From Phoronis australis (taxonomy: Eukaryota; Animalia; Phoronida): a stretch of DNA of 49,357 bases. Below the pieces are notes generated by a model, which ran no database searches, had not been told where the DNA came from, and saw only the letters and a program-made list of their open reading frames with translations. Position 1 is the stretch's first letter. Each line of letters starts with the position of its first letter. Location: NCBI GenBank assembly GCA_002633005.1, contig NMRA01000382.1, positions 384,899 through 434,255 of the forward strand, read 5' to 3'. The translations under genes were made by a program, and so were the position numbers. Of this stretch, positions 12,642 through 40,764 are shown piece by piece.

Positions 12642-12647
12642 TATAAA
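12642..12647 (+). promoter_or_regulatory. TATA box of the cysteine-rich repeat gene
   Basis: gTATAAAg 43 nt upstream of a caccATG start that opens a signal peptide. Confidence 0.6.
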
Positions 12648-12684: not shown

Positions 12685-12755
12685 ATGATACCATTGGTAC
12701 TTCTTTTACTGGTCAGTTCCCTAAGCGGAACACATGGTAATTACAGGACGTACAT
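12685..12755 (+). CDS. Exon 1 (signal peptide) of an 8-domain secreted cysteine-rich protein
   Basis: caccATG; MIPLVLLLLVSSLSGTHG-NYRTY(M) has a hydrophobic core and a T-H-G cleavage-type site. The perfect GTAAGT donor at 12756 is in phase 2 and matches the phase-2 acceptor at 17222 (AT|G = Met). Confidence 0.8.
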
Positions 12756-15303
12756 GTAAGTGTTGGGTTTTTTAATACTAAGGTAATGTATATCAAGAAC
12801 AATCTTCTACATTATTCTCATTGACGGGACATATCGCGGGTTGTTGAAAGTTTTAACGCTCCATTGACGTCTGCTCCTGACTTTCGTGAACGTCAATTCT
12901 AAATAAGATAAAAATAAATGGCTTCAAATTATAGGAAATTTCAACTGCTTCAGATGGCTCACTCCACAATCGAGTTATGATCACGTCATTTCTGTTTCTA
13001 TGATTTGTGTTTTAACCATTCTTTCATGACCGCAAGTGAGACGCACACCATCTCATAAAAATCTCGCATTGCAACATGTAGACATTTTCCACCAAGTAGA
13101 AAAATAAACGTTATTGGGTGTTCGCAAAAGTAAAGCTTTATCAAACTCTCGCACTTCATAGTACTAGTCTCCACCACGTCCGTCACATTCTGGTAATCGC
13201 ACCCTGCCAAACGGATTTTACTACTTGAGAGGCTAGTCTCCGGAGTTATCCCTCGTTTCATCTAAATTTTAAGTTTTCAGACCTTACCGCCTTATGCGCG
13301 TTACGAGTTTGCCGTGTGTTATATATATTTGGGAATAATTGAATTTCACTTTATTAGGGTGTCAAAAATGTACTTCTAAAATCACTGCAGTACACTGTAT
13401 TTGAGGGATATGAAAATGACGTAAGAAAATCCTATAGTTGGCTACGCAATCTGGAGTAATTCAGATACATGTAGAAAAAACATTACCTTCGAACACCGTC
13501 CCGAAAACTTCGATTATAATTTCGTCTAATGCGGAAAGTGAAAGATACATTTAGGCCTAGACTCACTTTGCAAGGTTTCAGTTTGGAAAATTTTAAAAGG
13601 ATGTGTATACGGTACAAAGTTGTCTGAGTCGTTGTTTAAAAATCTTTGTGGAAATTAATGGACGAGTACTGGATGGCTGCCCCCCAGAAGGAAAAAGATC
13701 AAATGATAAAGGCACGATCAGATTGTAAAAAATCGTTTATATAAAAGTCACTCGCTTTTAAGCGTCGGACGATGCAGCTTTAACCCCACGATTTTAGCCT
13801 ATGTACACGTAAGCTTGGTTAGACTCACCTAATTCTTACAAGATTGGTTTTAATGGCCAAAAACTGTTCAAATTAGTCGATTTTCGTAGATTCATAAATG
13901 TGAAAACAAAAATATATAAACCTTTTAATATCTTGGAACTCTCTTGGAAGAGCATGTTTATTTTATCATTACACGACCATCAGAAATATTGCCTTTGTAT
14001 AATACACAGATAGTTTTTTTCAAGGTAAATAAATGCTATTGATATTTTTAAATACAGTCTCACATTTTTGGTCGTTAAGGTTGCAAGTTTTGATTCCGTT
14101 CTGGTTCACATGGACGTGTTCTGCTTTGTCGTGCAAGATGCACTGTTAATTATTTCCCTCGTTACTGGTTGGAAAAGGTAGGGGGCTGCACTTCAAGAAA
14201 GGGCCTCTTCTGAAGGAGTTCCCGTAATGTGAAAGAATTATATACATGTCGTTGAGGAGAGTGCTTGTTAATTGCTAAATCTGGCTTCTATTTGAATGGT
14301 GACTTTCCCAAAGTAAAATATTATTGATTAAAATTTACGAAAACAGAAAGATAGACTATTCATCTCGACACCTTATAAATACAGATAGGCAAAAAAACCA
14401 TAGGTGCCACCAACAGGTCCTTTCAAATGTCTCAGACCCCGGTTTTTGAAATTTATAACTTCCAAAACAACGAACGCGTAGCGTAGCTCTCATGAAGGAA
14501 CTCATTCCGTTAGTTTCACAAAAATTTATACGCATTATACATGCAAGTCGTGTGCAATTTAAAAAAAAACATAGAAAATAGAGCGACATAATTCCACTAT
14601 TCTCTGCACTGTAAGAGTTCCACGAGGAATTGTCGTAGTGGATTTGAAAACATTAATCAATTTGATCTGTAGAATCTGCTCATTCCAAATGTTCTCCTAC
14701 TTCAAGTAAGTGTTTAGAATTACATGTACGTTTTCGTTTGAACAATCTACCTACAATGAAATCAAATGACAAGACTCCATTAATGATCAGAACTCGACCA
14801 CTAGCAATTGACAAACCTGTTCTGCCCTCTACACTGTACATGATTTGCTGCCCTTGGCCTGAGCTCTACACCTATATCAAAGTCCACGGTTCCGTCATGA
14901 CGCTTGCAAGTTATTTAACGACGCAACCGTGTCCTCACACAGGCTGCTACGGGCCTGCTCTCTTGTTAAAGGCGAAGGCAACCCTTTCCCATGTCATTTT
15001 GAGCTAAAATAAGGTTGGTTGGTTATCCTAGACATATTTTCCACTTAATTACAGCTTTTCGTAATTTCATAGATTACTCGTCCGCTACTCCGGAAGTGAC
15101 GTTTTAGGAGGCAAGCGTTTCCCGCCACTTGGTTTTGCGTTGACTTTAACGTGCGAATCTGTTCTATTCTACTTTTGTTTTGTGCTGTTTTTCAACAATT
15201 GTCGCCACCACTTTCCATCGGCGAGTATTCTGCGGCAAGATAGGTTAGTAGAGAACTCAACTACGTTTGATTTGGGGATTGTTTAGTGTGTTGGAAGCTG
15301 AAA

Positions 15304-15699
15304 ATGGCTGGAGTCGGTGACCCGTATCACAGTGACAGTAGTGTGAGTGACGGAGACCTTGTTCACAGCAGTGGTGACGAGGAATTTTTTCACGGACATT
15401 CAGTTGGTGGGTACATGTTTGAGCCCGAGTATAACGAGGCAGAGTACGCACAGGCACAGGCAGCTGTTGAGAGAAACGAGGCGGCTACTGAGGACAGACG
15501 TGGTGACACATCTTGGTGCAAATGCACTGTGTGCGTTGTTATGCCTACCTCAATGGAATGCTTGTGCTGTTCAGAGTTCGACGAGGCCAAGCCACTACTG
15601 GACATGGTTAAGTGGACCTCCGGCATACCACGGACAGAGGAACAACTGTCCCACTTGCCAGAGTGTCCCGCGACACACTCCCACTGGATGGTGACCTGA
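15304..15699 (+). CDS. Truncated KolX-like accessory protein (P2X7 C-terminal 'ballast'/Nanor-like Zn-binding domain)
   Basis: aaaATGg start and an acidic N-terminus, then YMFEP and R.GDTSWCKCTVCVVMPTSMECLCCSE. This is the YxFEP / WCxCxxCxxM...ExxCCxE motif known from KolX and the P2X7 intracellular domain. Homology ends near 15606. Confidence 0.8.
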   Translation: MAGVGDPYHSDSSVSDGDLVHSSGDEEFFHGHSVGGYMFEPEYNEAEYAQAQAAVERNEAATEDRRGDTSWCKCTVCVVMPTSMECLCCSEFDEAKPLLDMVKWTSGIPRTEEQLSHLPECPATHSHWMVT

Positions 15700-16397
15700 G
15701 CACCCAAACTGCTTACATCGTGTCGTGTGACTCCCTCGCCACACACCTGGCACCTTCTAAATAGCTCCAACACTTTAGACAAGTCCACAATAAACTTATC
15801 AAAGTTTGGCTCACCGATCTGTTCACTGGACGACGAACTGTCCTCTTCACTGGGTGTCGAACTGGGCCTGTAATCACTCCCACTACTCAATATCGCTGCA
15901 GGGCTGCTTAGAGGCTCTGGGCTGGAGAAAACAGCACAGGGCGAATCACTACTGGTTCCAGGAATTGCACGCTCTGGGGTACGTTCGGAGGCACGGGTGA
16001 CAGTAGATGAAGTGCCTCCACTGGCTCCAGTCACTGTACTGGCCACAGCTCGCGAGGCTTCTCGCTTCAAATACGCAATTCTCAGGGGTGGCGACGGGGC
16101 ACTGCCGGGAATCAACACAGACGGAATGGCAACCTTCTTCAGACGTTGTTTCGCAGGGACCTTCATCAGTTCAGTGTACAAATCCCTTTCGTAATCGGAC
16201 GGCAGAAAGTGCTTGCCACACACACGGTAATTCTCCACTGCTTTGTACGTTGCGTGGACGGGTAACGCTGCGTTCTTCACACGAACGAGCCAAGAACGGC
16301 GAAGTGTGTCATCCATCGGAAAGCAATGCAAAGGTACTCCCAAAGCGCGCGTGAGCTGATAATTAGTACATCCTGGTACGCACCAACAGTGTGGCAT
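15390..16397 (-). CDS. Truncated Kolobok transposase: THAP domain, Ser/Pro-rich linker and CxxC..C..GH..W region, with no DDE catalytic domain
   Basis: MPHCWCVPGC...LHCFP...W...RVCGKHF...RLKKVAIPS is a complete C2CH THAP signature. FIVDLSKVLELFRRCQVC...G...WECVAGH..KWDS resembles the conserved pre-catalytic block of Kolobok transposases. The sequence after ~15610 is antisense read-through of the other ORF. Confidence 0.8.
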   Translation of the reverse strand: MPHCWCVPGCTNYQLTRALGVPLHCFPMDDTLRRSWLVRVKNAALPVHATYKAVENYRVCGKHFLPSDYERDLYTELMKVPAKQRLKKVAIPSVLIPGSAPSPPLRIAYLKREASRAVASTVTGASGGTSSTVTRASERTPERAIPGTSSDSPCAVFSSPEPLSSPAAILSSGSDYRPSSTPSEEDSSSSSEQIGEPNFDKFIVDLSKVLELFRRCQVCGEGVTRHDVSSLGAQVTIQWECVAGHSGKWDSCSSVRGMPEVHLTMSSSGLASSNSEQHKHSIEVGITTHTVHLHQDVSPRLSSVAASFLSTAACACAYSASLYSGSNMYPPTECP

Positions 16398-17221
16398 GTT
16401 GTCTGACTAGTAAATGAAAGCAAACGACGACGGAACTTAACACAACCGAGGTAGAACAATGACTGACTCGACAGCTCTCACACTCAGACTATATGAAAAG
16501 AAATTGGCGCGAAATGCTTGCCTCCTAAAACGTCACTTCCGGAGTGGCGGACGAGTAATTAATAAAATTACGAAATGCTGTAATTAAGTTGAAAATATGT
16601 CTAGGATAACCAACCAACCTTATTTTAGCTCAAAATGACATGGAAAAAGGTTGCCTTCGCCTTTAAGCTTACTGTCAACTTATCGAGGCGAAGGAACGAA
16701 GTTAGTGCACGCATTTTTTTCCTTGCTGTCATATCGCATTGTTAAATGTATGGCGTTAAAGCTTTCATCAACAAAGACGTCTCACAATTCATTGCGCACA
16801 TTATTTTCCGTTCCTTCCGTAAAGTCAAAGCTGTAGGAAGTTAGAGCGTAAAGTAATGTATCTCAGTGAGGTCATTATATTGACTGTGGTAAGCTAAATC
16901 GAGACATTTCTCTCTAGGTTACCTGGACCTCGATTTTTAATGAGACAACATTCTTTATCTTGAAGGAAATGAATCCATTCTGTCAACGCTTGAAACTGAA
17001 CCTATTGGTTTATCACGACTTCATGTTTTCTTACATACTCTCGTCGTCGAGAAATTAATATAATTTTGATTTTATTTTGCGAATACAAACACCTGGCTAC
17101 ACTGCTCTTAATACACTGTATATCACTTCACTCTGTATCGTGCAGCTGCAGTGTTGATGAAAATCGTTTTTTGAAGTCTTCATTGCTGAACAGCTGTGGT
17201 TGTTTAATTTTTGTTCTTTAG

Positions 17222-17524
17222 GTGCACTTGTATATACAAGATAGGCAATAGGCAAGGCTTCGTCACCAACGTGGAGAACAGCATGAACCCTACAACTGCA
17301 TGTAGAGATTTACAATTTCGATGCCCAAGTCAGTGCAGATATAGCGCAATTGAGTATTTGAAGCTCACCACCGATGACGGAAAAAACCAAGTGTGTCAAC
17401 TTTACATAGGTCCAAGGACAACAGATGTGGTTGTTTATTCCGGTTCTATTGTGAATGGCTGTCAATTAGGTGTCGCAAAGTATGTAGCCGCAGTGGGAAA
17501 TGGGATTATATGCTGCTACAGGCC
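17222..17524 (+). CDS. Domain exon D1 (CxC type, 9 Cys)
   Basis: ttgttctttAG acceptor, GTAAGT donor, 303 nt, phase 2-2. CTC...TAC...RCPSQC...QVC...NGC...ICCYR(P). Confidence 0.88.
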
Positions 17525-19200
17525 GTAAGTATTATTATATGTTTTAGTAGTGCTACAAAGTACAACTTGTAACATAACCTTGGTATAGCAAAATTACGTT
17601 GGGCTAGGCGACTGTTTCTGATGTTGTCATTAACCTTGTCTAGTTCATCCTTACCGTAAGTACATGTGGAGTTTTGCAAATCCCGCACATGTGATGAATA
17701 CACCAAAAGTCTTGTTCAGGTGTATCAAAAATAAAATTTTCTTCATTCCAATATATAAAAGAATTTTGTAGTGTACTGAAAAAGCTGAATACCCCAATCA
17801 TGTTCTGTCGACAATGGCATGACTGTTTTGCTACGTATCCACTAAATGATGTCAATGTGCATTATAATTTTGTGCACTAGCTACGTGTCTAAAACTTGAC
17901 CTAACTGTGAACCTGCCAACAATGCATAAACAAGCAAAATGAATATTGATTTCAGACATACACTGTAGTCGCGACCTGATAAATATTCCCCTGGCTTGAT
18001 CTAGGGCTCTTGTCGTTACACGTGTAGTGATGAAACAGGGATCGTATTTCGTGCGAGGCCCTACGTGTACGCTTTGCTTATTTGGGTCAGTGAATTCCCC
18101 CACTTTCCAAAAACAGTGAATCGTACCTGCAAGAACGAGATGTGGCCCCTAATTCAGTTGCCCAGAACCCCATTCCGTAGCTTCATTTAGCTGAACGAAT
18201 GATCCGGTACTGCATACAGTACTCAACGTAGATTAATAATAACCAATACATTAAAACGCTAATTTCGGAGCCGGATGTTGAGTGGGCAACTGCCAATCAA
18301 CTCCGTCGCACAGACACTTCCCGGGAGCGGCCGCGAGGACACCCACCCTCGCCCGACGCCTTTTAGTCCAATTGATCCCTCGATGGAAAAGCACCTGGTT
18401 CTGTGGCCGCAAATCCCCTGAGTGTTTTTTTTTATTTTTTTTTTATTTTTTTTTCTTTGTCTTAATTAGTCGTGGCCTAGCTCGGTCGATGCAGCGTACG
18501 TGCTACTTTTTTGAAGTCAAACACAATTCGGATGTATCCGCCCGCAGCCTGCATTTTCCATTTACGCCTATTAGGTCGCATGCTAAAATATTCGGAGGCC
18601 AGAGAATTAAAAAAAAAACTTTGTCAACGTTGAATAATTTTCTGAAATTCGATTAAAGCTAAGGGGCGGCCTCAGTCGGTATTTTATGCGTAGGCGTAAT
18701 CTGTGGGCTGCGGTTATGAGTTTCACTAAACCCTGTTCTATTCATGAATTGCACACTCTCAGCCATTGCCCCAACAATATAGTAACGGTTACTAGGAAAC
18801 CCGCTAGGTATTTTTCTTAACTAATGATGTCTGCGTAATCGTCAGGCTGTTCGGCCTACATGTATGTTGAGAGCAATATCACCTCGCTTAGTGTGTCTCG
18901 AAGTGCCCAAACGTCAAACCGTGCAGCATAATGGGTGGTATTCATTGTTTTGATCGGGCAGGTTCTAAAATGGAAAGACTTAAATTTAAAATATGTACAG
19001 GCAATAAGTAGACCTATGTCACACTCACAAAAAGTTCTGTCAGAGAGTATATTTCGTTGGTTTTGGTGCAATTGCGGCTTATAGGCCCCTATGATTTGAG
19101 AGCAAATACAACATTTTAGATTAAAACGCCGAGGAATTTAAAATACATTTTAGGTGAACATTTGCTGAATCATTTAAACGAATTTCCACTCTTTTTTCAG

Positions 19201-19524
19201 TTGCCGTGCATGCCAACTGCATTACAGACTAGGGAGTCGGGGCACTCTTAAATATCTCGACAAAAATTGGAAACCACACGTACCAAACAAGGAGCCCTAC
19301 TATCCTTGCATGAGTCCTCACGAATTGACGAATGCCTGTTTCGCCGATTGCAAGAACGCAATGTCTGCCGAAGAAATTCCAAAAGACGTCACTTCGTTAA
19401 CAGCTCAAAAATTTTGCAACATCGTAAAGAGCCAAATTGCATATCCTGGTGCGACATTTCTTGTCTCATTTTCCGCCCCACACAATAGTGCTCTCGAGTT
19501 GTCAGGTCTGCCGATCTGTTGTGG
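19201..19524 (+). CDS. Domain exon D2 (CxxC type, 8 Cys)
   Basis: cttttttcAG acceptor, GTAAGA donor, 324 nt, phase 2-2. CRACQLHYRLGSRGTLKYLDKNWKPHVPNKEPYYPCMSPHELTNACFADC...KFC...ICC(G). The ORF track shows only the part from 19310. Confidence 0.88.
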
Positions 19525-20372
19525 GTAAGAGAACCAGAAAGAACGTACGCGAAGGCAGTGCTTGAGCTTTCTTTCACGTCATTCATGTACATGTATGCGA
19601 ATGCATGCATGTAAATACTGAATCTACAGACTCCTAAAAACATTTACATGTACATGTACCAGTGTTCTTGGGTGGGGAACTAATTTTTTACAAGAAATAG
19701 AACTTAAACGTTTCTTCTCAACCGCGGCATGAATTCAAGATAATGTACATGTACATGTACATGTAAGTGTCTACTATTCTGTGTATATTGTTGTTTACGT
19801 GGATGACAGTGTAATTTTCGTTTGCACTTGGTGAACCCGGCGTCAATGTCGTAATTTGAAGTTTTTACTCGAAATCTCGAATTTTCACTGAAGTTTGTAG
19901 TTTGAATTTAGAGGCCTTTAATAGTGAATTAGGATTACACACTGATTGGAATAATTCATAATAGAGTAAGCGATTATTATATGAAGTTCGTATTAAACGA
20001 GAACAGTAAACGCAAATGTATATTTGAGTTCAGCTTCGAGTAAACATGTCAGATCTCAGGCCCTGATGTACCCACGTTCTCTCAATTTGAAAACTCGCAT
20101 TCACAAATATATTATCATTGAAATAAGATAGTATTTGCTAGCATTAAAATTGCAAATTCATTTTTCGCGAGTTGAGTTATTGTCAAGATGAAATGTGTGT
20201 TAACTTCGGTAAGATACTATTTTGAGGGTTCAAGTTGAAAAAATGGATTTATGTCCATTTTTCCACAAGGCATGGCTCTCGTTGTTGACCGGGATCTAGG
20301 ATGTAGTTTTTAGCATTATGATAAACCCAGCACTGTTTCTCTCAGCGTATTTTAAGAGTCCTCAATTTTCAG

Positions 20373-20690
20373 GTGCATATGTGATTTAGAGGCAGTTGTC
20401 AATGGACGGTCTACGAGTTTGCCGGTTCGACTCCATCAGTCGAAAGAAAGAACAACCTTCGACTGCGCTAAGCAGTCTGACCAGTGTAAGGACTACTGTC
20501 GTTCAGTGATCGCATCGGCGCTGAACGTCAATAAAGCAAAGTTCTCATCCTTTGACCAAGCATCCGGAAACAAAGTCTGCGGGGTTCTGGGTGAGCACAA
20601 TTCTACCAACTCCCCGGGACATGTCGTGTATTCCAGCTACAACTACGGGAGTGGATTGAAGAAAGACTATCGAGGGGCAGTTTGTTGTGG
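20373..20690 (+). CDS. Domain exon D3 (CxC type, 8 Cys)
   Basis: aattttcAG acceptor, GTATGT donor, 318 nt, phase 2-2. CICDLEAVVNG...FDCAKQSDQCKDYC...KVC...VCC(G). Confidence 0.9.
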
Positions 20691-21039
20691 GTATGTACAT
20701 GTAGCGATTTCAAGATGGTTCGTTAATATGATAATTATGTAAACATTTATCGTAGTTCTGTGTATCTGTCACATCCTCGAGAGGTAAGACGGGCGGCAAT
20801 ACGGAAGGGAATAGTGGGTGAGACACAGCTGCAGTGAGAGAGAAGTATTAGAACCGCCAGGGATCTTAGAGGGAAATGATGGGGGTGGAAAAGTGGACGA
20901 GCGGATGCAAGACGAAAAAGGGAGATGAAAACAATTCACGTTTATTTGGGCGATGACCCAAATTGTGCACTTGTGAAAAATGTAAGTGGGCTAAACTAAC
21001 TACACCTTTGGGTTTCAACTGCTAATTGACTTTTCATAG

Positions 21040-21357
21040 GTGCACGTGTAATCTGAAAGCCTCTATTTCTTCGGGAAAGCTGGTGGATGTTCAACTTCCC
21101 TTAAAGCAATCTTCGAAAACCAAGTTTTACATGTGTCAAAAACAAAAACATGAATGCGCCAACGACTGCAGACGAGCTATTGGTGCAATTCTCAACAAAG
21201 ATAGAAAATCATTTGGAAACTTTGATGCCAACTCCAGAAGGAAAATTTGTGATCTTGTTTGGAAAAAGAATATCATTGCCGCTGGGATTTCAGTTTACTC
21301 ACAATACAAGTTCGGAAAGACCACTGAATTGGATCCATTAGGAATCGTCTGTTGCGG
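21040..21357 (+). CDS. Domain exon D4 (CxC type, 8 Cys, strongly basic)
   Basis: Branch-like ctaat plus ttttcatAG acceptor, GTAAGA donor, 318 nt, phase 2-2. CTCNLKA...YMCQKQKHECANDC...KIC...VCC(G). Confidence 0.9.
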
Positions 21358-22176
21358 GTAAGATCTTGTGTTTACGTTTTAAGAAACATAATTATGTCAT
21401 AATCTTGCACTATCTAATCAAAATTTTGCAAGCGCAGTAATGTTCTTAAAGTGTTATATCCGAATATTGGCATAGCTTTCATTTCGAGTTGAAAATGATG
21501 GGCTTGCCCGAAATTCACATTGTCAGAATTAAGTGAAGCGACACTTTAAATGTGTGTGCTCAGTTTGTGAATTTGTTTATATGCCTTGATACAGGCATCA
21601 GCCAACGCTGAGACACGCAAAAAGCGAGAAAAGGTATAGATTTGTGAACGTACCGTGATCCAGACTATGTAACACTCACTACTCTTGTGGTGTCGTATTA
21701 ACCTGTTCGGGTGCACGCCTTAAAAATGCCAATCTGTCGATCAAACCATACATGTAAGGTATGTTTAAACCAGTCATAACAGCGTTCTGGTATTAAGAAT
21801 CATTTACTACCAATACAGGCGCTACGATAGCAACGTCATCGTGTTCTTATGTTTTGTTTGAATTGAAGTTGGTAATCAAGGTAAGTCGCCTAAAGCCGTA
21901 CTTTCTGGACGACTGAAGCTAACCCGCCGTATATGTACACATGGCAAACAAACAACGGGCATGATTTGAACACAAGTCCCCTAAAACCCACACTCATCAA
22001 TGAGCCTTTCATTGACTTCGATGGAAAATGTCCATTGCTTAAGTGCTAGGCTGACTGAAGACATTACCGTGTAGCTTAAGGTGTATAGCTTCTTTGATAT
22101 TTTATAATCCAACCTGTTTTACTATAGAGTATTGGGATACTATCCTAGTAAATTTTGTCCTGATTTGGTCACAAAA

Positions 22177-22337
22177 CAGGGGCGGATCCAGGATTTTGAG
22201 TTAGGGGGGCCACGTCTGAGTAGTAGCCATGATTTTTCTCGTCAGACGTTCGAGCCCCTGAACTTCCAAATGGATCTAGGAGAATTTTAGGGGGGCATGG
22301 CCCCCTTGCCACCCCCGCCCCTCTAAATCCGACACTG
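22177..22337 (+). mobile_element. Short hAT-like MITE (CAGgGGCGGAT family)
   Basis: Termini CAGGGGCGGAT ... ATCCGACACTG; flanks caaaa / cataa. Both ends are shared in inverted orientation with 25628-25898. Confidence 0.75.
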
Positions 22338-24629
22338 CATAAGTTCTTCTATCTCTGATTAGATCGCTATTGCCTAATCTACTTGTTCATGTACAGAATG
22401 TCTTGTGTTTAGCAATCTTGGTTGCCAGTGGTCTTAGCAATTCACCGACGGTACAGTGTACATGTATGTAGGGTTCATCACATTACCTACTTGTAGTACA
22501 GTGAATGCTGGCGGGTAAGAAGGCAATAGCAGAGCATACTGAGGTCAAAACAACAGACCCTCCGGTGGAATAACATCCAGATGCTAGAGGGTAAAACAGG
22601 TTGACTAAAACATTGAGTGTTACGCAGTGTTTACTATATCACATAAAAATCGCCGCAGAAGTGAAAAAGCAAAGCGACATACCAATATATATACATAGGT
22701 TAGAGGTTGATGTAACCAGACAAAAAAATTAAACACGGGTTAAAATTGTAGCTTCATATTTACCCCATTTTAGTCACTTGAGATTTGGCCACCGGTCGTT
22801 TAATTGTCGTTTTAACCGACGTTTTGCTGAGTCAGCACGCAGGTATCAGACAGTAGGATATGTTTTATCATTGGTTGGTGTAGCCTCGGCAGCCATTGTT
22901 TAGCTTTACAACAAAGTGAGAAAATGGCAGACTAACAAATGGTTTTTAGCCTTGTCACACGCCGTCACCTGGTCGGTTTAACTAGTGTGTTATTCCTACT
23001 GTATGAATAAGGACAGCAACATAAACAAGTCAGTGACAGTAGAAAGATGCATTCCGAAAAGGTGCAACCACAATTTTCCGGAGATCACATTTTTCAACAC
23101 GAATTTTAAACAGTTACACACCATGGATTTTTGCACATTTTGAATTACCGGTGGCCATAGACTAAATGTATGAGGGAAAATTTAGGTACACCCATGTTTA
23201 TTTTGTGTAATTAGCTCGAAATTTTGATTTTTCTTTCAATTTTGCCAATTTTCACATTTGCCGCCATGTGACGTCTTGGGTGGAACACAAGAGGTCTGTG
23301 ACTAGTATTGAACACTGGCGGAGAGCAGGGAACTTGAAAGTGACGACGATTATGAGCAAGAATTGAACGAATACTATGAAGAAACGTACGGGAATGGTGG
23401 CCAGGATGAGGAAATGGGGTTGCACGAAAGCGAGAACAAGTTTAATGTGCTTCTGGCTGCGTACTTTTCTACTTTGAGCCTTACGAACTGGATCCTCCCG
23501 CGAGAGAAGCGGCCTCTGGCTCAGCGAGTCAACCCAGTCATCACAGACGATCCTGAATTAAGAGCTGATGTTTTGAATGATAAATATTGCCCTTTATTGA
23601 ACCAGGCCTTCATCGTAACGTCTCCTGTGACTGGAGTCGAGACACGAGTCCTCAAAGTGGGCAGAACACAGAGTCGGTGGCCCCGGACCGAATCGCTTGG
23701 TCCACGATGACGTCCCACACTCTCGTTCGGCGCACGAAGCGATGCCACTTCTGCACAACTTTGGTGTCCTTTGGAACACCGAGACGTTCTCCGCCTGGCT
23801 GCTGTTGCTGCAGCCTCCGGAAACACATCGTTTGATCCCTCTACGAACCTTCTCGACGCTAAATGTACTTTGCTTTCACTTCACTCTATACATGTACACT
23901 TTGTCTCTGATCCGAACAGTATGGCGAACGACTTGGGTTCAACCCATGACGTTGTATGTAATTACTATTTTTTTCAATTTTTGGGTGTTTCTTTATGAGC
24001 TGTGCACTAAAGGAACTTAAATCAAGTAAGATATAATTGTAAAATTTATTTTGAGGTACAAGAGTCATGCTGTGTACACTTTAAGCACCGATTTTTCTGT
24101 AAAACAGACCATATTTACATGTACACTTCCTCCATCAGTCATGCCAGTTTGTTTGTGTAAAGCGCTGCCTATTGAGAATTCGACCAGCCAATCAGAAACG
24201 TCGGTGTAACAAAATTCCCGAGAAAAATTAAGTGATACCCATTGAGATAAATATATCTAGAGTTGACATCACGTGGTTTTCGTTGAGCGGAGTGATCCGC
24301 CATCTTGCTGAATCGATGTCCCGAGACAATTAGTTGGGATATCGAGATCTTGAGATACTATAATCGGGATATCGAGATTCCGTGATTATTAAAAAGAAAC
24401 GTGCGACGTCATCTTTGACCACCGTATACAGTGCATGTACTTTCATGCAAAAGTGGAAAATTTTAAGAATAATTCCTTCCAACTTTTTGGTGGAGAGTGG
24501 ATGAAGTAGAGTATCCATCAGCTGCTCAGGAATCCTATGAATCCACTTCCAAGTTATAGTCCAGCCTTAGCCAAATTTAGTAATTTTTCTGGGTTGACAT
24601 CTCTGATTCCAAGTGTTTATTTTCACCAG

Positions 24630-24965
24630 GAAATGCCTTGCGTGTGGTGTACGGTACACTCAAAATGCCAACGATATTGTCGCAAAGGAGTACAAGTTGG
24701 ACGGCCCAAATGATACTTCTCCATATTATGACTGTTCACAGCGTTTAACGACCAAATGCGGAAAAGATTGTAATGCCACTCTGACAGCCGCAAGCAACAA
24801 TAATTACTTTGGAAGAAACTCCGTAGATTCCGTTTCAGCTCAAAAAGTATGTGATAACATTGGACGACCTATACCCACCCCTGGATTGCGTGTCGAAGTG
24901 ACATATGACATAGGCGACAATCACCATCACCATTTTGTGGTGCCAGGTGGAAGTGTTTGTTGTGG
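24630..24965 (+). CDS. Domain exon D5 (CxxC type, 8 Cys)
   Basis: ttttcaccAG acceptor, GTAAGC donor, 336 nt, phase 2-2. KCLAC...YDC...KCGKDC...KVC...DNHHHHF...VCC(G). Confidence 0.9.
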
Positions 24966-25627
24966 GTAAGCTGTATAGTTAACATTGTTACTATTGTATA
25001 ACATTGCCATTTTATTACAACCCCCAATGTGATATGGTAAAGGCCTACTCGTACATTTGTTGCTTGTTCTTTGCATGACTGAAGGCGATGGAATCGGCAA
25101 GTTATCAAATCGGTAGTTAACTCAGCCATGCGCTATCGATCGATGATCACTCATTTTACAGGTGTTAGCCAGAACATTTTGATTGTACAAAATTCAAAGC
25201 CCGATATTGGAAGGAAAATTGTTCTATACATTGAGTTAAGTGGCGAAAAAATCAATGTTACTGACCGTAAAAGCAAACTTTCTGTCGACATTTCTCCCTA
25301 CAATCGACGACTTGCCTGTGGCGAAACTACGGCTGTTTACAACGGAGGAAGTTTGCTGCAACTCGGCTGTGCCCAGTATGGTTCTGTTACGCAATCGGCG
25401 TACTATGACTTGTTCCAAAGCGTGGAAAATTCGTCGAAGACGCAAATCCGGCCATCGAGCGAGTGCGTTTCAAAGCCTAACAACTGATCATTATCCGTGT
25501 GAAGACAACTTGGTTGGCCAAAAGAAAGGGTGGAATGCAACGGAGGCCACTCCCATTGACGAGCCTTTACGGTTGCGTGACAAACAAAATTTTGAATATG
25601 GAAAGGCTTTTATTTTTTGTTACGACT

Positions 25628-25898
25628 CAGTGGCGGATTTAGGGGGGGCAAGGGGGCCATGGCCAACCTAAAATTCTAGAAGAAACCATTTGACTAGCAC
25701 ATCCAGGGGTCTCGGGTGAATAAACAATGCATAGGCCCTGAACAAACCCCGTTTATGTTTTTTTTAATCAAAAGGTACGCAAACCCAAAAATTCGACGCC
25801 CCTGCATCCCTACATTTTAGGGTGGGCGCGCATCTGCCGAAATTCTGGTTGTTCTTGTGCCCTGGCCCCCCTAACTCAAAATCCTGGATCTGCCCCTG
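25628..25898 (-). mobile_element. hAT-like MITE, same family as 22177-22337, inverted
   Basis: Termini CAGTGGCGGAT ... ATCTGCCCCTG with an exact 5-bp TSD CGACT. Confidence 0.8.
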
Positions 25899-28165: not shown

Positions 28166-28486
28166 ATGCAACTGTAATTTAAAAGCAAAGACTGTAACTG
28201 GTGACATTGTGAAGGTACCAATTACTCTTTTCCAATCTGCGAGAAACAAGTACTACAATTGCCAAGCTCAGGAAGAGGAATGTCGGAAAGATTGTAGGAT
28301 CGTTATTGGAAAGGCACTCAGTGCTGATAAAGGGCCATTTACTGTATTTGACAACCACTCTGGAGATACGGTTTGCCAAAATATTGACCAAAATATGCTT
28401 TTTAACGAAACAGGAATTCCATTATACTCAGAATATCAATTCGGAGCCATCGATGGCCTGGACTATCTGGGAAGTGTATGTTGCAG
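28166..28486 (+). CDS. Domain exon D6 (CxC type, 8 Cys; paralogue of D4)
   Basis: ttgattgcAG acceptor, GTAAGA donor, 321 nt, phase 2-2. CNCNLKA...YNCQAQEEECRKDC...TVC...VCC(R). Confidence 0.9.
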
Positions 28487-30897: not shown

Positions 30898-31230
30898 GAA
30901 GTGTCAAGCGTGCGTTTTACGATACCTTGAGAATGACAACGCTCAAGTGAAAAAAGAATTTGTTTTGGATGGTCCTCACAACGTCACGTCGTACCATTGT
31001 TCTCGACGAATAACCACTACTTGTGAGCAATCTTGCAACGCCACTCTGTTGTCTCCTAGCAACCATGAGTACTTTGGTAACACATTCGTTAACGCGGTTT
31101 CTGCTCAAAGAGTCTGCAGAAAGGTTGGACGATCGATACCCAGCCCTGGGTTACGTGTTGAAGTAAATTACGATGTGGGGGACAACAAGTATCACTATTT
31201 CCAGGTGCCTGGTGGGAATGTATGCTGTGG
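30898..31230 (+). CDS. Domain exon D7 (CxxC type, 8 Cys; paralogue of D5)
   Basis: ctttttaccAG acceptor, GTAAGT donor, 333 nt, phase 2-2. KCQAC...YHC...TCEQSC...RVC...VCC(G). Confidence 0.9.
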
Positions 31231-31827
31231 GTAAGTATACAGTGTACCTACAAAAATAGTAGGCAAACGTGCCATCACCAGAGCATGAATCGTCAAATAG
31301 TTGAAGTCTTTTATAGGTCGAATCTCAATGTTTTTTAAACGACTTGAACGATTCAGCTGGATTTTTGTGCAGCGTTTCTAGGCTTCAATTCTTTCTGTTA
31401 CCAACTGCAGTTAGGTTGTTACTACATGTAAATTATATATCTCATTGCCCGCATTTCGTTTCACATGTACTTTTGTCTCTTCAACAGTTATTTTGTCGGT
31501 CTTATTCTTTGATTTTTGGTTGACTTACTGCATTCTTAGAAGGATATACTAAAATGTAGAGAGAGTAAAATTATAAAGTTCGGGAGAAATTAAATGTTAA
31601 AATTCAGCAGCAATCGTTTTAAAAACCTAAAAAGACTTGGATTTGCAAATGACTTTCTTTGGAGAACGAAGTTTTGGTCGCAACTACAAAATGAGAGCTT
31701 TTTTGGGCATGAAATTTACTTTGGTGTCACAGTGCTCTGTGGGAATCCTGATGCTTGGAAATGGTCGTCTGGCAGGTTCGCTTTGATGGGTGTGGTCAGG
31801 GGAGCCAAGAGAATGACACTCAAAAAT

Positions 31828-32772
31828 TGAGCTAGATCAACTTTTCTCGAAACCACTTCAAACTGCCTTGGATACCTACTGCGAAATTCACTGTATCAAA
31901 ATTGGTCACTGCCAGACAACTGAAGTGGTGGGAATTATCAGCCAGACGGTTTTAAAAAAGGTAAAAAAATGAGCTATATCAATTCAGGAGGTAACCGCAT
32001 GAAACCAGTTGCGAAATATTCACCGAGAGCCCAGGTATCACGAATGAACACTGCCAGACAAATCTAGTGGTGGGTTAGCCCCGCCAGACACGCCAGATAC
32101 CCGAGTTAACCCACCAGGTATCCGTTTGAAACCCATTGCACGATGTTCAGCATCACTCTACATTGCACAAATGTTAGATGCCAGATAAATTCAATAGTGG
32201 AGGCCCCTGCCGGGCGATTATAAAAAAGGGTTAGAAATTGAGCTAGGTTAACCCAAGAGTTAACCGCATGAATCCAGTTGTAAAATATTCGCTGGGAGTT
32301 CAGGTATCAAGAACAATTACTGCCAGACAGATCTAGTGGTGGGTCATCCTCGCCAGACACGCCCAAGTACACTATACCTGAGTTGAGCTAGATCTACCCA
32401 ACATGTAACCATTTGAAACCAATTGCCCAATGTTCAGCATCACTGCACATGGCACAAGAGTAAGATGCAAGACAATTTCAGTGGTGGGTTTTCCCTGCCC
32501 GACGACTATAGAAAGAGCTAAAATTTGAAGTAAATCAACCCAAGAGGTAACCGCATCACACCAGTTGCAAAATATTCTCTGGAAGCCCAAGTATCATTAA
32601 TAAACATTGCGAGACAAGTCTAGAGGTGGATTAGCCCTGCCACTCACGATCAAATATCTGAGTTGGGCCAGATTTACCCGCCAGGTAACTGTTTGAAACC
32701 TTTTTACATAATGTCGAGCAACATTCTGCGTGCAACAAAACGTACTTTACAGACATTTCCAGTGGTGGGGCA
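31828..32772. repeat. Degenerate tandem repeat, ~270-290 bp period made of two ~140-bp subunits
   Basis: gtaaccgcat-like anchors at 31991, 32260 and 32547. tgccagaca...agtggtggg recurs at about half that period. Confidence 0.8.
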
Positions 32773-33702
32773 GTAGCATCCACAGATTTGGTCGATGCAG
32801 TGGCGACTTTTTGTTGGACTCCCCTATCGCATTTCTCAAACGCATATATCCTATTCAGGCCCGTTGCCAACATTCAAAAAGGTTGAAAACACCTCTGCGT
32901 CACCTGATATGCGTTCGTATGGTCGTGTTAGATTACATGGAAACTATCAAAGCTGTAATGTAGATAAAACATTCTTTTCGTGTTGCGACCTACTTATTCG
33001 CATTCAAAGGGAATAACAAGTCGTTATAGTTTTAGTTAGATTGAGAATCATTTCATTTGCAAATATCCCGGCAATGGAACTGTTCGCTTTTTGCCTTCAT
33101 AGTGAATATAAAACACATTCAAATTATTCATAGATTTTGTATATCGTGCTCAGTCATCGTGGCGACGGCCCCGGGCATCCACATTGGAGGATGGGGTATC
33201 CAACCACACTTTTTTGAAAATAGTGACGGATTTCAGTTGAACTTAATAAATATTGTATAGTTTATGTTTCACCTTTTTACTTTTGTCATTAATAGTACTG
33301 CCCCGTAGCGAAAGGGGGCGGGGTTCTGGGGGTTCGATCAAACTTTTCCCCGCCCCGGCCTATTGGTTAAAGATAGGATATAAATGGACAACAAGAACTT
33401 CATCTACTGGTGCTACTAACTACAATAATAACTAAGTTAGTAATAATTTTGAATTTGCTTCTGATTAAAAGCGCTTCACGTGGCATCGGGCCTTACTCGG
33501 CTAACTTCGCCCGAGTGCCGCTGTTTGTGTAGATGACAGTATCGTGCATATGATAAGAGGAGGCTTTATGTTATTCATAAACCACGCGCGTGGTAGCTAC
33601 ACCAAAGTGAAACAAGGGAGTGTCTAGCCCTACGGCCTAAATAAGGTACATGTATATAGCGAAGAGAGAGTTCCCCAAAAGAGTGCTGTGTGAATGCCTT
33701 AA

Positions 33703-35378
33703 AGGAGCAGGCCACCCAAAAAACAACCGAATTTGTATCAATTTAGATCGAGTAGCTCTACTCCATAACGACACGTACGGTTGCGTTACCTGACACCTGA
33801 CGGCAGACGGAGGTGTTGAAATTATCCAATGACGTCATAGGTTTCACACGCAGTCTGTTCAGCAGTTCACAACACGGGTTACTGGTGTCAGCTTATCGCT
33901 TGAAGTCATCGTTTAACACCAATAAATCATCAAACTTCGATGCAAAACCCTTAAAAATACACCGAGTTCTTATAAAAACGTGTTGTTTTATTTCGCTCTT
34001 ACGGATTTGTTCGTATTTGGACACACCGTAGCCTACAAAGTTCGGCAGGCCAATAAGGTCCGTAGCAGGAGTTTGGGGTCTGTTCGGAGATAATTTCGAA
34101 GTATTTTTCGTGAGATACAGACAGGAGAACCTAGATCTATGTTGTTTAGACTAATGATATTTTGAGTTCTAAACACAAAACGCTTGTCATCCTGGCTAGT
34201 GGCTCGGAGCCCGATCAAGCCCGTCGCGGCCGGCCGGATTGACTTCATCATTGTTATCCCGGCCAGTGGCTCGGAAACTGATCAGACATTACGAGCATAA
34301 ACCAGCCAAAGTTCAGTGGAAACTAAACTTCGAGTCAAGAAAATATTATACTAGTGAGCCAAAGTAATGTGCACTTGATTATGTTAGTGAATTAGCCACG
34401 AAACTGCAAATCTACTTACTCTTCGGGGGCCGCGAATTCACTCGGGTTCCGCTTTGGCCACAGCACCGTCTGGGCAGAAGTTGTACATTGACAATCATTA
34501 TTTGAGTAATGTAAACGTAAATAAAGATTCCCCTAACACCTAGCCGTGGGATGGAAATCGAGTTGTTTCACAACAATTTCTACCAGCAAACACTAAATTA
34601 GCATGAGCTCACACGGCCGCGGTGTCCCGTCAATTCGTTTTATTGCACCTAAAGCCGGTAATGCAGTGATTTATTTATTGCTGGCTTTTCAAATCATTTG
34701 CACTCACAAACACTCCAAAGGCATTACAAACTGCATCTAATGAGACAGACTTTGTTTCAATTGGTTAGGGTGAGAAGGCATTTTGAAACCAACGCTTAGT
34801 ACTAAACGCCAACATGGCAACTCGCAATCCCGACTTAGGACGAGCTAGAGCTCATCAGTCACGACTTCGCAGCTGGACCGTTAAGTTTTACAGGCTATCA
34901 ATTCGAACAGGAATACAGTGATGAAGAAATACTAGAGAGGCACCGTGAACAAGCTCAGACAACGGAACATGGAGTTATTTGGTAAGCCGGCATTCGTCAC
35001 TGAGGCACTGTCGACGTTTGCATGCCACAGACACGGAGATGTTTCACGGCCTCATACTTGCTATTTACAGCGTACATTTCATTCTTCACTACCATGAGCC
35101 ACTCCTTAAGCATTTCGGACTCTCGAGGAAGTAAAAAAAAACGATATACCCGCTTTCCTCGCAGCTGCCTAGTTCGGACAAGCGGGAACGATGCACCGCA
35201 ACATAGCGGCATTCACTCTGCATATGAACCACTGACGTCGCTAGCGTCGTTTCTCACCTTCCTCACAGGTTAACGCGACACCTCTTGGCAAGGTAAGTTC
35301 GACCGTATGCGAGGCGATGTGGATATAGACCGATTAAGACGGCAAAAAAGACTAAGTTAAATCGGGTGGCATTCGCCT
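33703..35378 (-). mobile_element. Non-autonomous Kolobok-type element, family 1 copy B (inverted relative to copy A)
   Basis: TTAA at 33699-33702 and 35379-35382. Termini AGGAGCAGGCCACCC and (reverse-complemented) AGGCGAATGCCACCC. Collinear with 8551-10237. Confidence 0.85.
34997..35212 (-). pseudogene. Decayed THAP domain inside Kolobok copy B
   Basis: ...FFLLPRESEMLKEWLMVVKNEMYAVNSKYEAVKHLRVCG aligns with FPMDDTLRRSWLVRVKNAALPVHATYKAVENYRVCG of the 15390-16397 ORF. Confidence 0.7.
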
Positions 35379-35570
35379 TTAAACTCAGCCAAGAAACAAA
35401 ACAGCAGATTCTGCTATTTTGGTTTAATTGCTAGCATAGTACGGTAGAAGTGCAGGCAGTTTCAAATTTTGAATCGAAAGTTATCGTCAAATGCAAATAT
35501 GTTGTTCATCCAGTGTCCACTTTGATTGTAAATAGTCCTTTTGCGAGTATATTACAATAACGCGAGACTA

Positions 35571-36565
35571 TGTGACGTCACCGGATGTGGGGCAAAAGCT
35601 TGTCGTTTGCCATTTGCCCGATACGGTAGCAGAGTGTATTCTGCTGTTTACTTCGAGTTTTTATCTTTTAGTGTGAAAAATGCCACTACACTATGTTCCA
35701 TCGCGTTCTGTACTAATTTCGTCCGCGTGTATTTCAAACGGGTGGTAGGCGAAATCCGCACACTGATTAAGTTTTCACCTCGTCAAAAATACATTCTACA
35801 CACCTAAAATTATCACCTAAAAAGTCCCTTACTTTCTTCAGTGATCCTTTTTGCTTCCGAACATATCTTCGATGAAGCATAGCTAGGGGAATGCAGGTGA
35901 CTTTGGTGAAGAATTCCAACTCCACTTTTGGTTAGGGCGCGATATCCACAAAGTATTTCAACTGAGTCAAGAGAGTATGAGGCAAAGGCAAGCGCGAGAC
36001 CGAGCGAAGCGCGGGACCTGGCGCGTTACACTTGTACATTAGCCTCGGAAAACATCAAGTGAACTTTTTAAGATTCTTGTCCCTTGGACTTTTAGTTCGA
36101 CAACAGGCGAGATTTCGCGTAATTTCCTCAAAATGGCGTCCGTTGAGAGAAACTCGAGCGAACTGCGAGGTTTTCATGGATATGTTCAAGTTATTTGCGG
36201 ACTAAATTGTATCAAGAGTCAGGGTATGTGCTAATTATAATTCCATGTGCACATATGCATGTTTCAATTGATTTTATTTGCTGTATTTTAAAATGAGTAA
36301 CTTTGTATGGGATATACTATCGAGCCTGTATGCCTGCGTCATTCAAGCCTAGACCGGGTCGTTCAGTCCGTTCACAACTTCGCACAGCATAATAAGTTCA
36401 CATTTTCTTCGTCCATTCACAGTTTTTCAACGATCCATCTACCATCCCTTAAATCGTGTTAACGTTTTAAGCTTAAAATTCACCATAAGAACTCCGGTAA
36501 GATTTCGCGTGTGTAGCAAAGACTGGGCAAAACAAAAACAATATGGCGGNTCCGGTGACGTCACA
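35571..36565. mobile_element. Non-autonomous TIR element (element X)
   Basis: Inverted 15-mer TGTGACGTCACCGGA (35571) / TCCGGTGACGTCACA (36551-36565). The interior ~35683-36330 is repeated inverted at ~38012-38643. The exact ends and TSD are not resolved. Confidence 0.65.
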
Positions 36566-37406
36566 TTGACTAACTGGAAACGGGCAAGTGAGCTATTGGT
36601 GGATTGACATCCATGCGTGTACACGTGTAAGCGTTTCCGTTCACCTTACGCTTACGGGCAGTTCGCTGTAGGCAGTCCTCCGTCGTGCTCAAAAACCAGA
36701 CCTTCAACTACCGTGTTTTCTTGCACTGAGAATACCCCGTCGAGCATTTTTGCGTTATGATGGAAAAGTAGGTCTAGACCTCAAATTTGGTCAATGAAAA
36801 TCTTCTCTAGGCAATCAATGTCAATGGTGCACAAACCTGCAGACTTCATACGAGCTACGAACTTGATGGAAAAAGATATCCAAATTTCCATGTCACTATG
36901 ACGAAAGTTCAACACTCCGAAGGTCCAGTAGGCCTACTCCGAATGTCCATTACTCCGAATGTTCGTTACATTCGAAAATTCACTACTTTGATTTTCCACT
37001 ATTCCAAAACCAGGGCCCGGTCTCTAATCTTTGTACTCGAAATTATTTTTGGCAATTTCTCTGCCCCTTTTGTGCGAACTCAAGATTAGTGGTTATCAGA
37101 CCGTGCTCGAATAATTATAGTTTATGCATACATGTACATGAGTTTCTAGTCAAGTTTAGACTTAAAGACCCTTACATTCGTTAAACAAACTCGAGTAAAA
37201 ACTCGAAATTTCGAGTTCAAATTTAAACTTTTAGCTTTAATGCTGCATTTATCAAATGCAAACTAGGATTAATAAATCCACGTAAGCCATTATATACTTG
37301 AGCATGAAATAAATATAGGTTATACAACGTACGTGTTTGTACCAGTGGTTATTATATCTCGATTCGTGATATGCAAAAGTATTTGAACGAGAGCGAATTA
37401 TCCTAT

Positions 37407-38828
37407 ACGGTCCATATCCATATAGCTTCGCATACGGTCGACCTTACCTTGCCGAGAGGTGTCGCATTAACCTGTGAGGAAGGTGAGAAACGACGCAACG
37501 ACGTCAGTGGTTCATTTGCAGAGTGAATGCCGCTATGTTGTGGTGCATCGTTCATGCTTGTCCGAACTATGCAACTGTGAGGAAAGCAGGTACAACCTTT
37601 TTCGATTTCCTCGAGAGTCCGAAATGCTTAGTAACTGGCTCGCGGTAGTGAAGAATGAAAAATAAGCTGTTAATAGCACGTATGAGGCCGTGAAACATCT
37701 CCGTGTCTGTGGCTGGCAGTCGTAGACAGTGAGTCTGACGAATGCCGGCTTACAAAGAACTATCCATATTTGCGGAGTCTTCGTCGGATGAACTCTCGTC
37801 TAGAAGTCGGGATTCTATAGACGTTCTGCGTTCTGTTTCAAAATGAAATATTCTCGCCCTAACCTATGGTTATATAGAACTCAAACAAAGTCTGTCTCAT
37901 TAGATACAACTTGTAATTTCTTTGGAGTATTCGTGAGTGCAAATGTTTTGAAAAGCCATCAATGAATGAACCGCTACGTTACCAGCTTCAGATGCAGTAA
38001 AGGTAATAGCTCAGGGGCGATAGTTTATCCCCATAAAAAGTTACTCACTTCAAAATACAGCAAATAAAATCAAATGAAACATGCATATGCGCACATGGAG
38101 TTATAATTAATTAACACATACCCTGACTCATATAACTTGAACCTATCCATGAAAACCTCGCGGTTTGCTCAAGTTTCTCTCACAGGGCGCCATTTAAGGA
38201 AGTTACGTGAAATCACGAACAATAAGTCCAAGGAACACAAATCTTACAAATTCGCTTGATATGTTCTCATGTTATTTTGCAAGTGTCACGCGCCAGGTCT
38301 CGCGCTTCACTCAGTCTCGCGCTAGCCTTTGCCTCATACTCACCTGACCAGTTGAACTACTTTGTGGTTATCGCGCGCGCGGTTTAAGTTAACAGTAACC
38401 ACAATGTGGAGTTGGAATTCTTCGTCAAAGTCACCTGGATTCCCGTAGCTCTGCTTCATCGAAGATATGTTTAGAAGCAGAAACGACCACTGGAGAAAGT
38501 AAGCGCCTTTTTAGGTGATAATTTTAGATGTAGAATGTATTTTTGACGTCGTGAAAACTTAATCAGTGAGCGGATTTCGCATATCGCCCGTTTAAAATAC
38601 TCGAAACGAAATTAGTACAAAACGCGATACAACGTATTGTAGTGCGAATCTGAATTTCATTTGCCCTAACAGCAATGCTTGTTTGGCGGTGTGTCCAAAT
38701 ACCAATAAATCCGTAACAGCGAATTAAAACAACGCGTTTTTATAAGAAATCGGTGTATTTTTGAGGGTTTCACATCGAAGTTTGATGATTTATTGGTGTT
38801 AAACGATGAATTCAAGTGGTAAGCTGAC
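37407..38828 (+). mobile_element. Truncated Kolobok family 1 copy C, with its middle replaced by an inverted fragment of element X (~38012-38643)
   Basis: 37407-38007 matches copy A ~8597-9290 and 38688-38828 matches copy A ~9930-10050. It has no TIRs. ORF 37474-37665 retains FRFPRESEMLSNWLAVVKNE. Confidence 0.75.
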
Positions 38829-39314
38829 CTGGAAAATATCGTCTGCTAAAGTAGGTAGCCACTAGTGACTGAGTATAATGATCAGGTCAAAAGATCCTTA
38901 AGTTATATCATAACCTTCGAATTGCCAATACAACCGTGTAATAACTATATTAGGCGGGAACCGAAGACGGTTTCGAACCCGGGCCGCAAGAGTTTCGAGC
39001 CGTCGACTTCACCACTACACCAACCAGTAGCTGACGTCATCGAACGTGAAAATCGAATACTTAAATGAGCACGCTCAAAAATCGCAGTTCAGCAAAGGGC
39101 ATTGTACCGACATTTATAGGCTATGACAAATAAGACGCATACTTTCCATAACAACGATATTTTAGTTCAGTGAAAATTTTCTCTCATGTTCTCTCACTTA
39201 AAATTCACCGATCTCCATTTTGAATGTGGATATCGTGCCGCCAGGATCCTTTGGCTTGAGCATTATACTCAGTTGCCAGTAGTAACCTACTTTAGCAGAC
39301 GATTTTTCCCGGTC
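38826..39314. mobile_element. MITE with ~70-bp imperfect TIRs containing a tRNA-like segment
   Basis: Left ggaaaatatcgtctgctaaagtaggt..actgagtataatg..aaaagatcct. Right (reverse-complemented) gggaaaaatcgtctgctaaagtaggt..actgagtataatg..aaaggatcct. Confidence 0.8.
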
Positions 39315-40382
39315 GAAGCTTGGCGTGATAAAATGTGTAGTGAGCTATAATAGTTGCTAAACCTTAATTTATAGATTCATTCTATTTCTACATGTATTTT
39401 GTTTAAATTTTCAGTTGAGTTTGATTAAAAGCATTATTTGACAAAAATAGCTCAGGTTTTCATAAAAGGTCACGACCTCCGACCCCTGGCCTATGACAGA
39501 GGTAGTTACAAAGCCGAGGCGAGTCGAGAAAGGTCGATCGATTCATTGCAATGTTTCTCGTTCAGTATGTGGTATAAATAAATTATTACATGTTCTCAAT
39601 CGTTGTCCCCCTTTTCTAGAGCCCTCGGGCTCTAGAATACGGAGGATAATGACTTCGCCATGTAATAATCTTTATATAATTGTATCAAGTATACCTTGAT
39701 GTGCCAAATAATTTATTGGAACTAAACTACAAAACAAGCGGTAACATTTGCATGCTGTATGAGACAATATGTGAAGAAAATTACTGATATTATGTAAGGT
39801 ATTAGGTGTTGCTAGTACACGAGAATATTCTCTGAAGCAGAAGTCCGAATAACAAGACATTCCAAGAATACAGAAAGTCATTACTTCCTATGGTCAATCG
39901 CGTAACAAGAATCAGGCCAGGATACTGCACCCCTTTTCATCTTAGACAAAAATTGAACTACGAGGAGCATACATGTACATTGTATACAGTACATGCCTTC
40001 ATAAACAAACAAACAATCAAGTTACGACGAAATTAATTAGAATGCTCTTTTAAAGTCACTTTAAAGGGTCATCCGGATGTTGTACATTTAACACAACGGG
40101 AGTTCCAAGTCGTGGTAGAATGTTCATCAGTCATACTTGTCAAAATAATGCTTTTCTTCTTCACAAAAACTTGTGTGCTTGGTTTGTACTGTGTCGACTT
40201 CTGATCATTGCGAATCAGAACAGCATCGCAAACCCTAACGTTACACTTACACGTACACTGTATAGGGTACTTTTACAGGTTTATGGGTACACTTACTTGC
40301 ACACGTATACATACAATTGTAAATACTCGTGTTTATGCGCTGCTTAAGTGTTGCTCACAAAATGTACATTGTCATGTTACAG

Positions 40383-40764
40383 ATGTAGTTGTGAAGTGAA
40401 GATAAGATACAAGATCAACGGAACTGTAAAGACGCTCGGCGTTGCCGCTGAACTGGCAGCTAGGCCAAAATACTTCGCTTGCGGTAGCCACGTCAGCCAA
40501 TGCAAGAACCAGTGTAGAACGGCTGCTGGTAAGGCCCTTGCTGGTGAAGAGACAGCAGTAACTTTGGTGGATGCGAACATCGCCAACAATGTCTGTATGC
40601 TTCTGAACACGACAGTGCCTAAGCCAGGCGCCTTAGTGTACACCGAGTACGACGTGGGAAGGGGAAGCCGGGAAGACCCTCTGGGAAATGTCTGTTGTTT
40701 TGTAACTCCTGAGGCATACTGGGCATTTGGACTTCCGCCAATCCTTGCGACCTTGTGTAAATAG
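40383..40764 (+). CDS. Terminal domain exon D8 (CxC type, 8 Cys plus a tail Cys, stop codon)
   Basis: gttacAG acceptor in phase 2. CSCEVKIRY...FAC...QCKNQC...NVC...VCCFVTPEAYWAFGLPPILATLCK*, with no donor after the CC. Possible poly(A) signal ATTAAA at 41070-41075. Confidence 0.9.

Follow-up and report, generated by a model that had tools for sequence, protein, structure and literature searches.

The present study concerns a stretch of 49,357 nucleotides of Phoronis australis DNA (GenBank assembly GCA_002633005.1, contig NMRA01000382.1, positions 384,899 to 434,255 of the forward strand), referred to here at its full length as the window. With 40% GC, spliceosomal introns and transposons, it is animal genomic DNA. 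It contains a real and intact gene in which a leader exon is followed by eight exons, each coding for one cysteine-rich module (D1 to D8). Judged from its sequence, the gene belongs to a family of secreted animal proteins that has no name, and it is the longest member found (eight modules against at most four). It is likely that the nine exons give rise to one secreted glycoprotein of 901 residues and eight modules, which would serve as a multivalent extracellular scaffold or binder. The features of the gene are as follows:

12642..12647, + strand, TATA box-like TATAAA, 43 nt 5' of the ATG
12685..12755, + strand, exon 1 with the ATG, a hydrophobic signal-peptide-like leader and a phase-2 donor
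17222..17524, + strand, D1, N-cap module, 9 Cys including a hairpin Cys seen in first modules only
19201..19524, + strand, D2, internal module with 8 Cys that clusters with D5/D7
20373..20690, + strand, D3, internal module with 8 Cys that clusters with D4/D6
21040..21357, + strand, D4, basic internal module (net +11) with 8 Cys, 43% identity to D6
24630..24965, + strand, D5, internal module with 8 Cys and, in its last hairpin, a His4 run; 58% identity to D7
28166..28486, + strand, D6, internal module, 8 Cys, acidic (isoelectric point, pI, 5.0), AlphaFold2 model
30898..31230, + strand, D7, internal module, 8 Cys
40383..40764, + strand, D8, C-cap module, 8 Cys and a tail Cys, stop codon, AlphaFold2 model
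41070..41075, + strand, candidate polyadenylation-signal-like hexamer, the first after the stop

An earlier, sequence-only reading of this DNA had proposed a TATA box, a signal-peptide exon and eight AG/GT-bounded module exons with a common Cys skeleton, and this layout was recovered in full. All splice sites are canonical, the AG being preceded by a pyrimidine-rich stretch at 8/8 acceptors and the donors being GTAAG or GTATG in 8/8 cases, and the Cys skeleton is present in 8/8 modules. Each module exon has a single open frame. Joining the nine exons reproduced the figures given earlier, namely 2706 nt coding for 901 aa and a stop, with 66 Cys and 9 N-x-S/T sequons (about nine had been counted). 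Since exon 1 is 71 nt long, all the introns, which range from 349 to 9152 nt, are in phase 2, which makes D1-D7 symmetric (3n) exons. When the + strand was searched for AG..GT-bounded, stop-free 3n exons carrying the Cys skeleton, seven were found, exactly D1-D7; the same search gave 0 on the - strand and 0 in 20 block shuffles. No ninth module was detected by a hidden Markov model of the eight modules in six frames of the window (next match E 1.4). Under the filter used, exon 1 alone among the ATG exons of the window combines a hydrophobic leader with a phase-2 donor. It ends in an N-x-R-T stretch similar to the residues before the first CxC of a sea cucumber relative described below. A stop is met one codon into the intron, with no tail, in 6/7 of the D1-D7 exons, and beyond the leader no further hydrophobic segment stands out in the exon translations. 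Two points had been missed by the earlier reading: the first and last modules are specialised ends, and the symmetric exons permit in-frame alternative splicing. It should be noted here that no exon is touched by the assembly gap of 192 N (7936-8127, after a CA repeat) or by the isolated N at 36550 and at 41869.

Relatives of the module were collected by a profile search of 1.84 billion representatives with a cut-off of E<=1e-3. This gave 30 relatives, 11 of them at E<=1e-10 and the best at 9e-24. Most of the 30 carry two to four tandem modules and the complete ones have a hydrophobic leader, which supports the earlier view of a secreted-type, disulfide-rich protein of tandem modules. Thirty proteins (29 profile-search matches and P0065) were looked up, and two of these bear a species name, the remainder coming from metagenome and run assemblies. 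P0001 is CAF0853428.1 of Brachionus calyciflorus, a protein of 521 aa with four modules recorded as unnamed, and P0016 is XP_071846670.1 of Apostichopus japonicus, the sea cucumber protein, with 263 aa, two modules and the record "uncharacterized". The 28 metagenome relatives are inferred to be rotifers. The number of modules in the relatives is 2, 3 or 4 and varies genomically, three being the commonest layout (11/14 complete relatives, P0030 counted). Between the CC of one module and the CxC of the next the relatives have 2-5 residues within one open reading frame (ORF), as against 1-2 in the predicted splice product. Several of these ORFs sit on contigs of 6-13 kb, so the junctions between the relatives' modules are likely to be encoded without splicing. 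A word-index protein search gave 0 hits among 6081 candidates of 222-2000 aa; it missed relatives known from the profile search, and searches of this kind are insensitive. Two further word-index searches gave 4 and 5 matches, all within the family already found. The pairs P0002/P0013 and P0004/P0009 (P0045/P0048) lie on equal-sized contigs (7088; 5771 and 17267), and in each such pair one member is without the hairpin Cys and Cys3. Paralogues may thus be clustered among the relatives, although metagenome locus scans with P0011 and P0003 gave no confirmed relative.

Comparison with these relatives marks D1 and D8 as the opposite ends of a single gene of this family and D2-D7 as its six internal modules. 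Of the 83 modules aligned, 15 carry a Cys in their last hairpin (the hairpin Cys), and all of these are first modules, D1 among them; a tail Cys occurs in last modules only, D8 among them. Exactly 8 Cys were counted in 19/19 complete internal modules of the relatives and in 6/6 here (D2-D7). Odd Cys counts are confined to D1 and D8 in this gene and likewise to end modules in the relatives. The two ends of the sea cucumber protein have 9+9 Cys, matching the counts of D1 and D8. In the trees D1 clusters with the relatives' first modules with a support of 94 in the Shimodaira-Hasegawa-like approximate likelihood ratio test (SH-aLRT), and with all Cys masked it still does so, with 14/15 of them and an SH-aLRT of 89. 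For this analysis pieces below 60 aa were dropped before alignment and those below 85 aa before the trees. The splitting into modules left two artefacts: modules 1 and 2 of P0030 were merged, the hairpin Cys being seen in the first by eye, and the second row of P0006 falls in the tail column. The shared layout of first, internal and last modules supports one chain with D1 as N-cap and D8 as C-cap, and the likeness of the stretch before the first CxC to that of the sea cucumber protein supports the splice from exon 1 to D1.

The gene would have grown from an ancestor with an N-cap and a C-cap by duplication of phase 2-2 exons. D5 and D7 are 58% identical and D4 and D6 43%. This pattern suggests that D4 and D5 were copied together, and D4-D5 to D6-D7 would be the latest step still visible. 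The nonsynonymous and synonymous divergences (dN and dS) are 0.30 and about 2.9 for D5/D7, and 0.52 and 1.8 for D4/D6. As dN is well below dS in both pairs, these modules have been under purifying selection.

Over the eight modules 8 Cys and one Gly are invariant, in the order CxC, C, CxxxC, C, G, CC, and identity between modules is 19-58%. It had been claimed that the module falls outside EGF, WAP, Kazal, Kunitz, vWC, TIL, ShK and LDLa, and indeed the Pfam gathering score was reached by 0/8 modules and by 0/30 relatives. Sub-cut-off Pfam matches to Membrane_bind (E 0.007), DUF7772, KWL1 and PspB are not shared among the modules and were rejected. The module was not found described in full-text literature searches, subscription papers largely and supplements lying outside their scope. 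The predicted fold of each module consists of two beta-hairpins with two helices between them. The AlphaFold2 model of D6 has this form (predicted local distance difference test, pLDDT, 88.7; predicted template-modelling score, pTM, 0.81), and that of D8 (pLDDT 84.7) has the same fold, its tail adding a short helix and, ahead of the last Cys, a strand. Foldseek gave 0 matches for the D6 model against PDB and BFVD at E<=0.001, and a PDB sequence search gave a best E of 0.72. VIA-align against 48,161 chains gave a best Z of 3.9 both for D6 (root-mean-square deviation, rmsd, 3.3 over 74 aligned) and for D8 (rmsd 3.4 over 68); these outcomes do not imply that the fold is new.

The earlier reading had also likened the module to small single-domain invertebrate proteins of the IRP30 type. 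The general likeness stands in part, as the nearest neighbours in the ESM Atlas are unnamed single-domain clusters of arthropods and molluscs (104-159 aa, without Pfam family), with feature scores of 0.82-0.90 to D6 and P0016 and template-modelling (TM) scores, by target, of 0.51 and 0.58 to part of P0016. As homologues these single-module look-alikes are leads only. The IRP30 label finds no support, and no result ties IRP30 to this module. IRP30 contains leucine-rich repeats, and no leucine-rich-repeat family was found in the Pfam scan of the eight modules. IRP30 is described as a haemolymph protein specific to Hymenoptera (PMC7136008). The relatives of the module that bear a species name come from a rotifer and an echinoderm. 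The label was judged on these grounds and without a sequence comparison with IRP30.

The novelty of the concatemer has to be reduced as well. Eight modules are the longest array found, but unnamed relatives with two to four modules are already in databases, and for this reason the concatemer is less new than had been claimed. The sea cucumber protein resembles the present gene in its signal-type leader, the N-x-R-T before the first CxC, the first module with a hairpin Cys (9 Cys) and the last module with a tail Cys (9 Cys); it differs in having two modules and no internal ones, at about 23-30% identity per module. CAF0853428.1 and the 28 metagenome relatives share the module, the first/internal/last layout and short CC-to-CxC linkers. 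They differ in having at most four modules, which are longer, and junctions inside single ORFs in place of one exon per module; a subgroup is in addition without the hairpin Cys and Cys3. The arthropod and mollusc hypothetical proteins differ in having one module only. Arrays of EGF, WAP, TSP1, LDLa and sushi modules, which likewise arose through the duplication of symmetric exons, also have one exon per disulfide-rich module, symmetric phase and a signal peptide, and the classic shuffled extracellular modules are mostly of phase 1-1. The present gene is unlike them in its phase 2-2 exons, in having no Pfam match and in end modules with extra Cys.

How the cysteines are paired can be approached from first modules that have lost some of them. 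The hairpin Cys is absent from five first modules, all of which also lack Cys3, and the complete ones among them retain the tail Cys. This joint loss suggests disulfide staples between modules, and a scheme with three internal disulfides and two stapling Cys in each internal module is given a little better than an even chance. Cys3 would bond a Cys of the preceding module, probably within its CC; the hairpin Cys of D1 would pair with D1's own Cys3 and the tail Cys of D8 with D8's free Cys, giving a capped, semi-rigid chain. Two observations count against this scheme. The five first modules sit among internal-type modules in the trees and their co-loss was probably one evolutionary event, and it is for this reason that the staples are not rated higher. 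In addition, P0005 and P0010 (2/14 complete relatives) have a Cys near the cleavage site, which would break the even Cys count if kept in the mature chain. In a competing scheme each module would have four internal disulfides, and the hairpin Cys of D1 and the tail Cys of D8 would join to give a ring or a head-to-tail polymer. The restriction of odd Cys counts to the ends, here and in the relatives, suits this scheme, as do the D8 tail modelled as a beta-strand reaching the last Cys and the high confidence with which D6, a lone internal module, was modelled. It is nevertheless unlikely. Where the first module has no hairpin Cys (5/5), Cys3 is gone as well and the tail Cys is retained, which would demand a re-pairing that staples do not need. 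The length of the tail does not clearly follow the number of modules, being 9 aa with four modules, 12-17 with three, 14-16 with two and 19 here. A prediction of the D1+D8 complex scored 0.03; alignments were unused in it, and it carries no weight either way.

With the staple scheme slightly preferred, the larger question is whether the nine exons make one product. From the open frame and the cap layout, one eight-module product, as in the earlier reading, is probable. The RNA data do not add to it. About 18-19% of each of three raw runs carrying the same species label was used, covering the gene up to, and not including, D8 and the 3' untranslated region. Several points weigh against a single long product. 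In the binned RNA coverage, exon 1, D1, D3, D4 and the greater part of D2 and D7 have zero depth and D5/D6 no more than 0.83, and no exon-exon join is present among the 15 listed of 90 joints. No relative with more than four modules was found in the profile or word-index searches. The trees that place D1 are quick ones, built on 119-128 columns and with long branches. The same RNA runs cover intronic transposons deeply. As the stretch offers no unique expressed control, the RNA evidence is weak and at most suggests restricted expression.

Another way to use these exons would be alternative splicing, in which exon 1 and D1 are joined to a subset of D2-D7, in the extreme a single one, and then to D8, so that several isoforms are produced. 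All internal exons are of phase 2-2, so any subset, whether cassette or mutually exclusive, stays in frame. D1, one internal module and D8 would make three modules, the commonest layout of complete relatives (11/14), and the internal modules vary widely in charge (pI 5.0-9.5). D5 is moreover flanked by a 36-bp inverted repeat (97%; 22177-22212 and 25863-25898), probably the termini of a small mobile element present in two copies, and it is speculative that its pairing in the pre-mRNA favours skipping of D5. Against this, nothing bars joint inclusion, either sterically or by frameshift, with introns of 349-9152 nt and donors near consensus. Complementarity of the docking/selector kind was sought between 600 nt after D1 or before D8 and 280 nt beside the internal exons, and in these intron parts it was not above shuffles, the 7-9-mers being no better than 95-100 of 100 shuffles. 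In both respects the gene is unlike a Dscam-type mutually exclusive cluster. Module number in the relatives differs genomically, and D4-D5 was duplicated as a pair. Splicing of this type is thus rated as having about one chance in five. A bolder form, with six cassette exons between fixed caps giving up to 64 secreted binders as staple-linked chains of a new alpha/beta fold, is more doubtful still. That the exons are several small genes lying side by side, or a silent relic, is highly improbable: almost no reads lie over the exons in the three RNA runs, the introns contain several transposons and single-module look-alikes occur in arthropods and molluscs, but there is one leader exon only, the D1-D7 exons mostly run tail-less into a stop, and all frames and splice sites are intact despite near-saturated synonymous sites.

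The surroundings of the gene can be described briefly. Its upstream neighbour is a gene for a cyclophilin-type peptidyl-prolyl isomerase, presumably PPIL1-like, of which the last coding exons lie at 949-1017 and 2952-3173 (+ strand); the last exon matches Pro_isomerase of Pfam at E 1.6e-24. Intron 1 harbours a DNA transposon (14966-16666) with 171-bp inverted ends (92%) and ORFs for THAP on the - strand and a P2RX7_C-like protein on the + strand; related copies are abundant in the RNA runs. A THAP-like transposon remnant (E 8e-4) is present in the D4-D5 intron at about 22900-24200 and is covered by reads from related copies. A 1.7-kb repeat element occurs in two inverted copies (77%) at 8547-10247 and 33693-35382, with more fragments at 34639-38828.

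For the one eight-module product, which remains the preferred reading, the chain would enter the endoplasmic reticulum, fold module by module, gain N-glycans and be secreted, and it would serve as a multivalent extracellular scaffold or binder in mucus, matrix or an adhesive. The surfaces of the modules differ, D4 having a net charge of +11, D6 a pI of 5.0 and D5 a His4 run, and this suits such a role. If the function has to be guessed, a structural or adhesive one is given an even chance, immune recognition is possible with clearly lower probability, and some other role is less probable again. No evidence was found for the venom role that had been among the earlier suggestions. Our data point to an extracellular animal module that is as yet undescribed, has a structure predicted with confidence and follows a rule of cap, repeats and cap that holds in a rotifer, an echinoderm and Phoronis australis. 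With its two modules, the sea cucumber protein offers a direct way of testing the fold and the disulfide map. Without alternative splicing of its internal exons the gene would code for an ordinary modular secreted protein of an unnamed family; with it, the gene would be a new example of combinatorial diversity among the secreted proteins of invertebrates. Should the bolder reading with cassette exons hold, the module would span protostomes and deuterostomes and the gene would represent an extracellular recognition or material system not described before.

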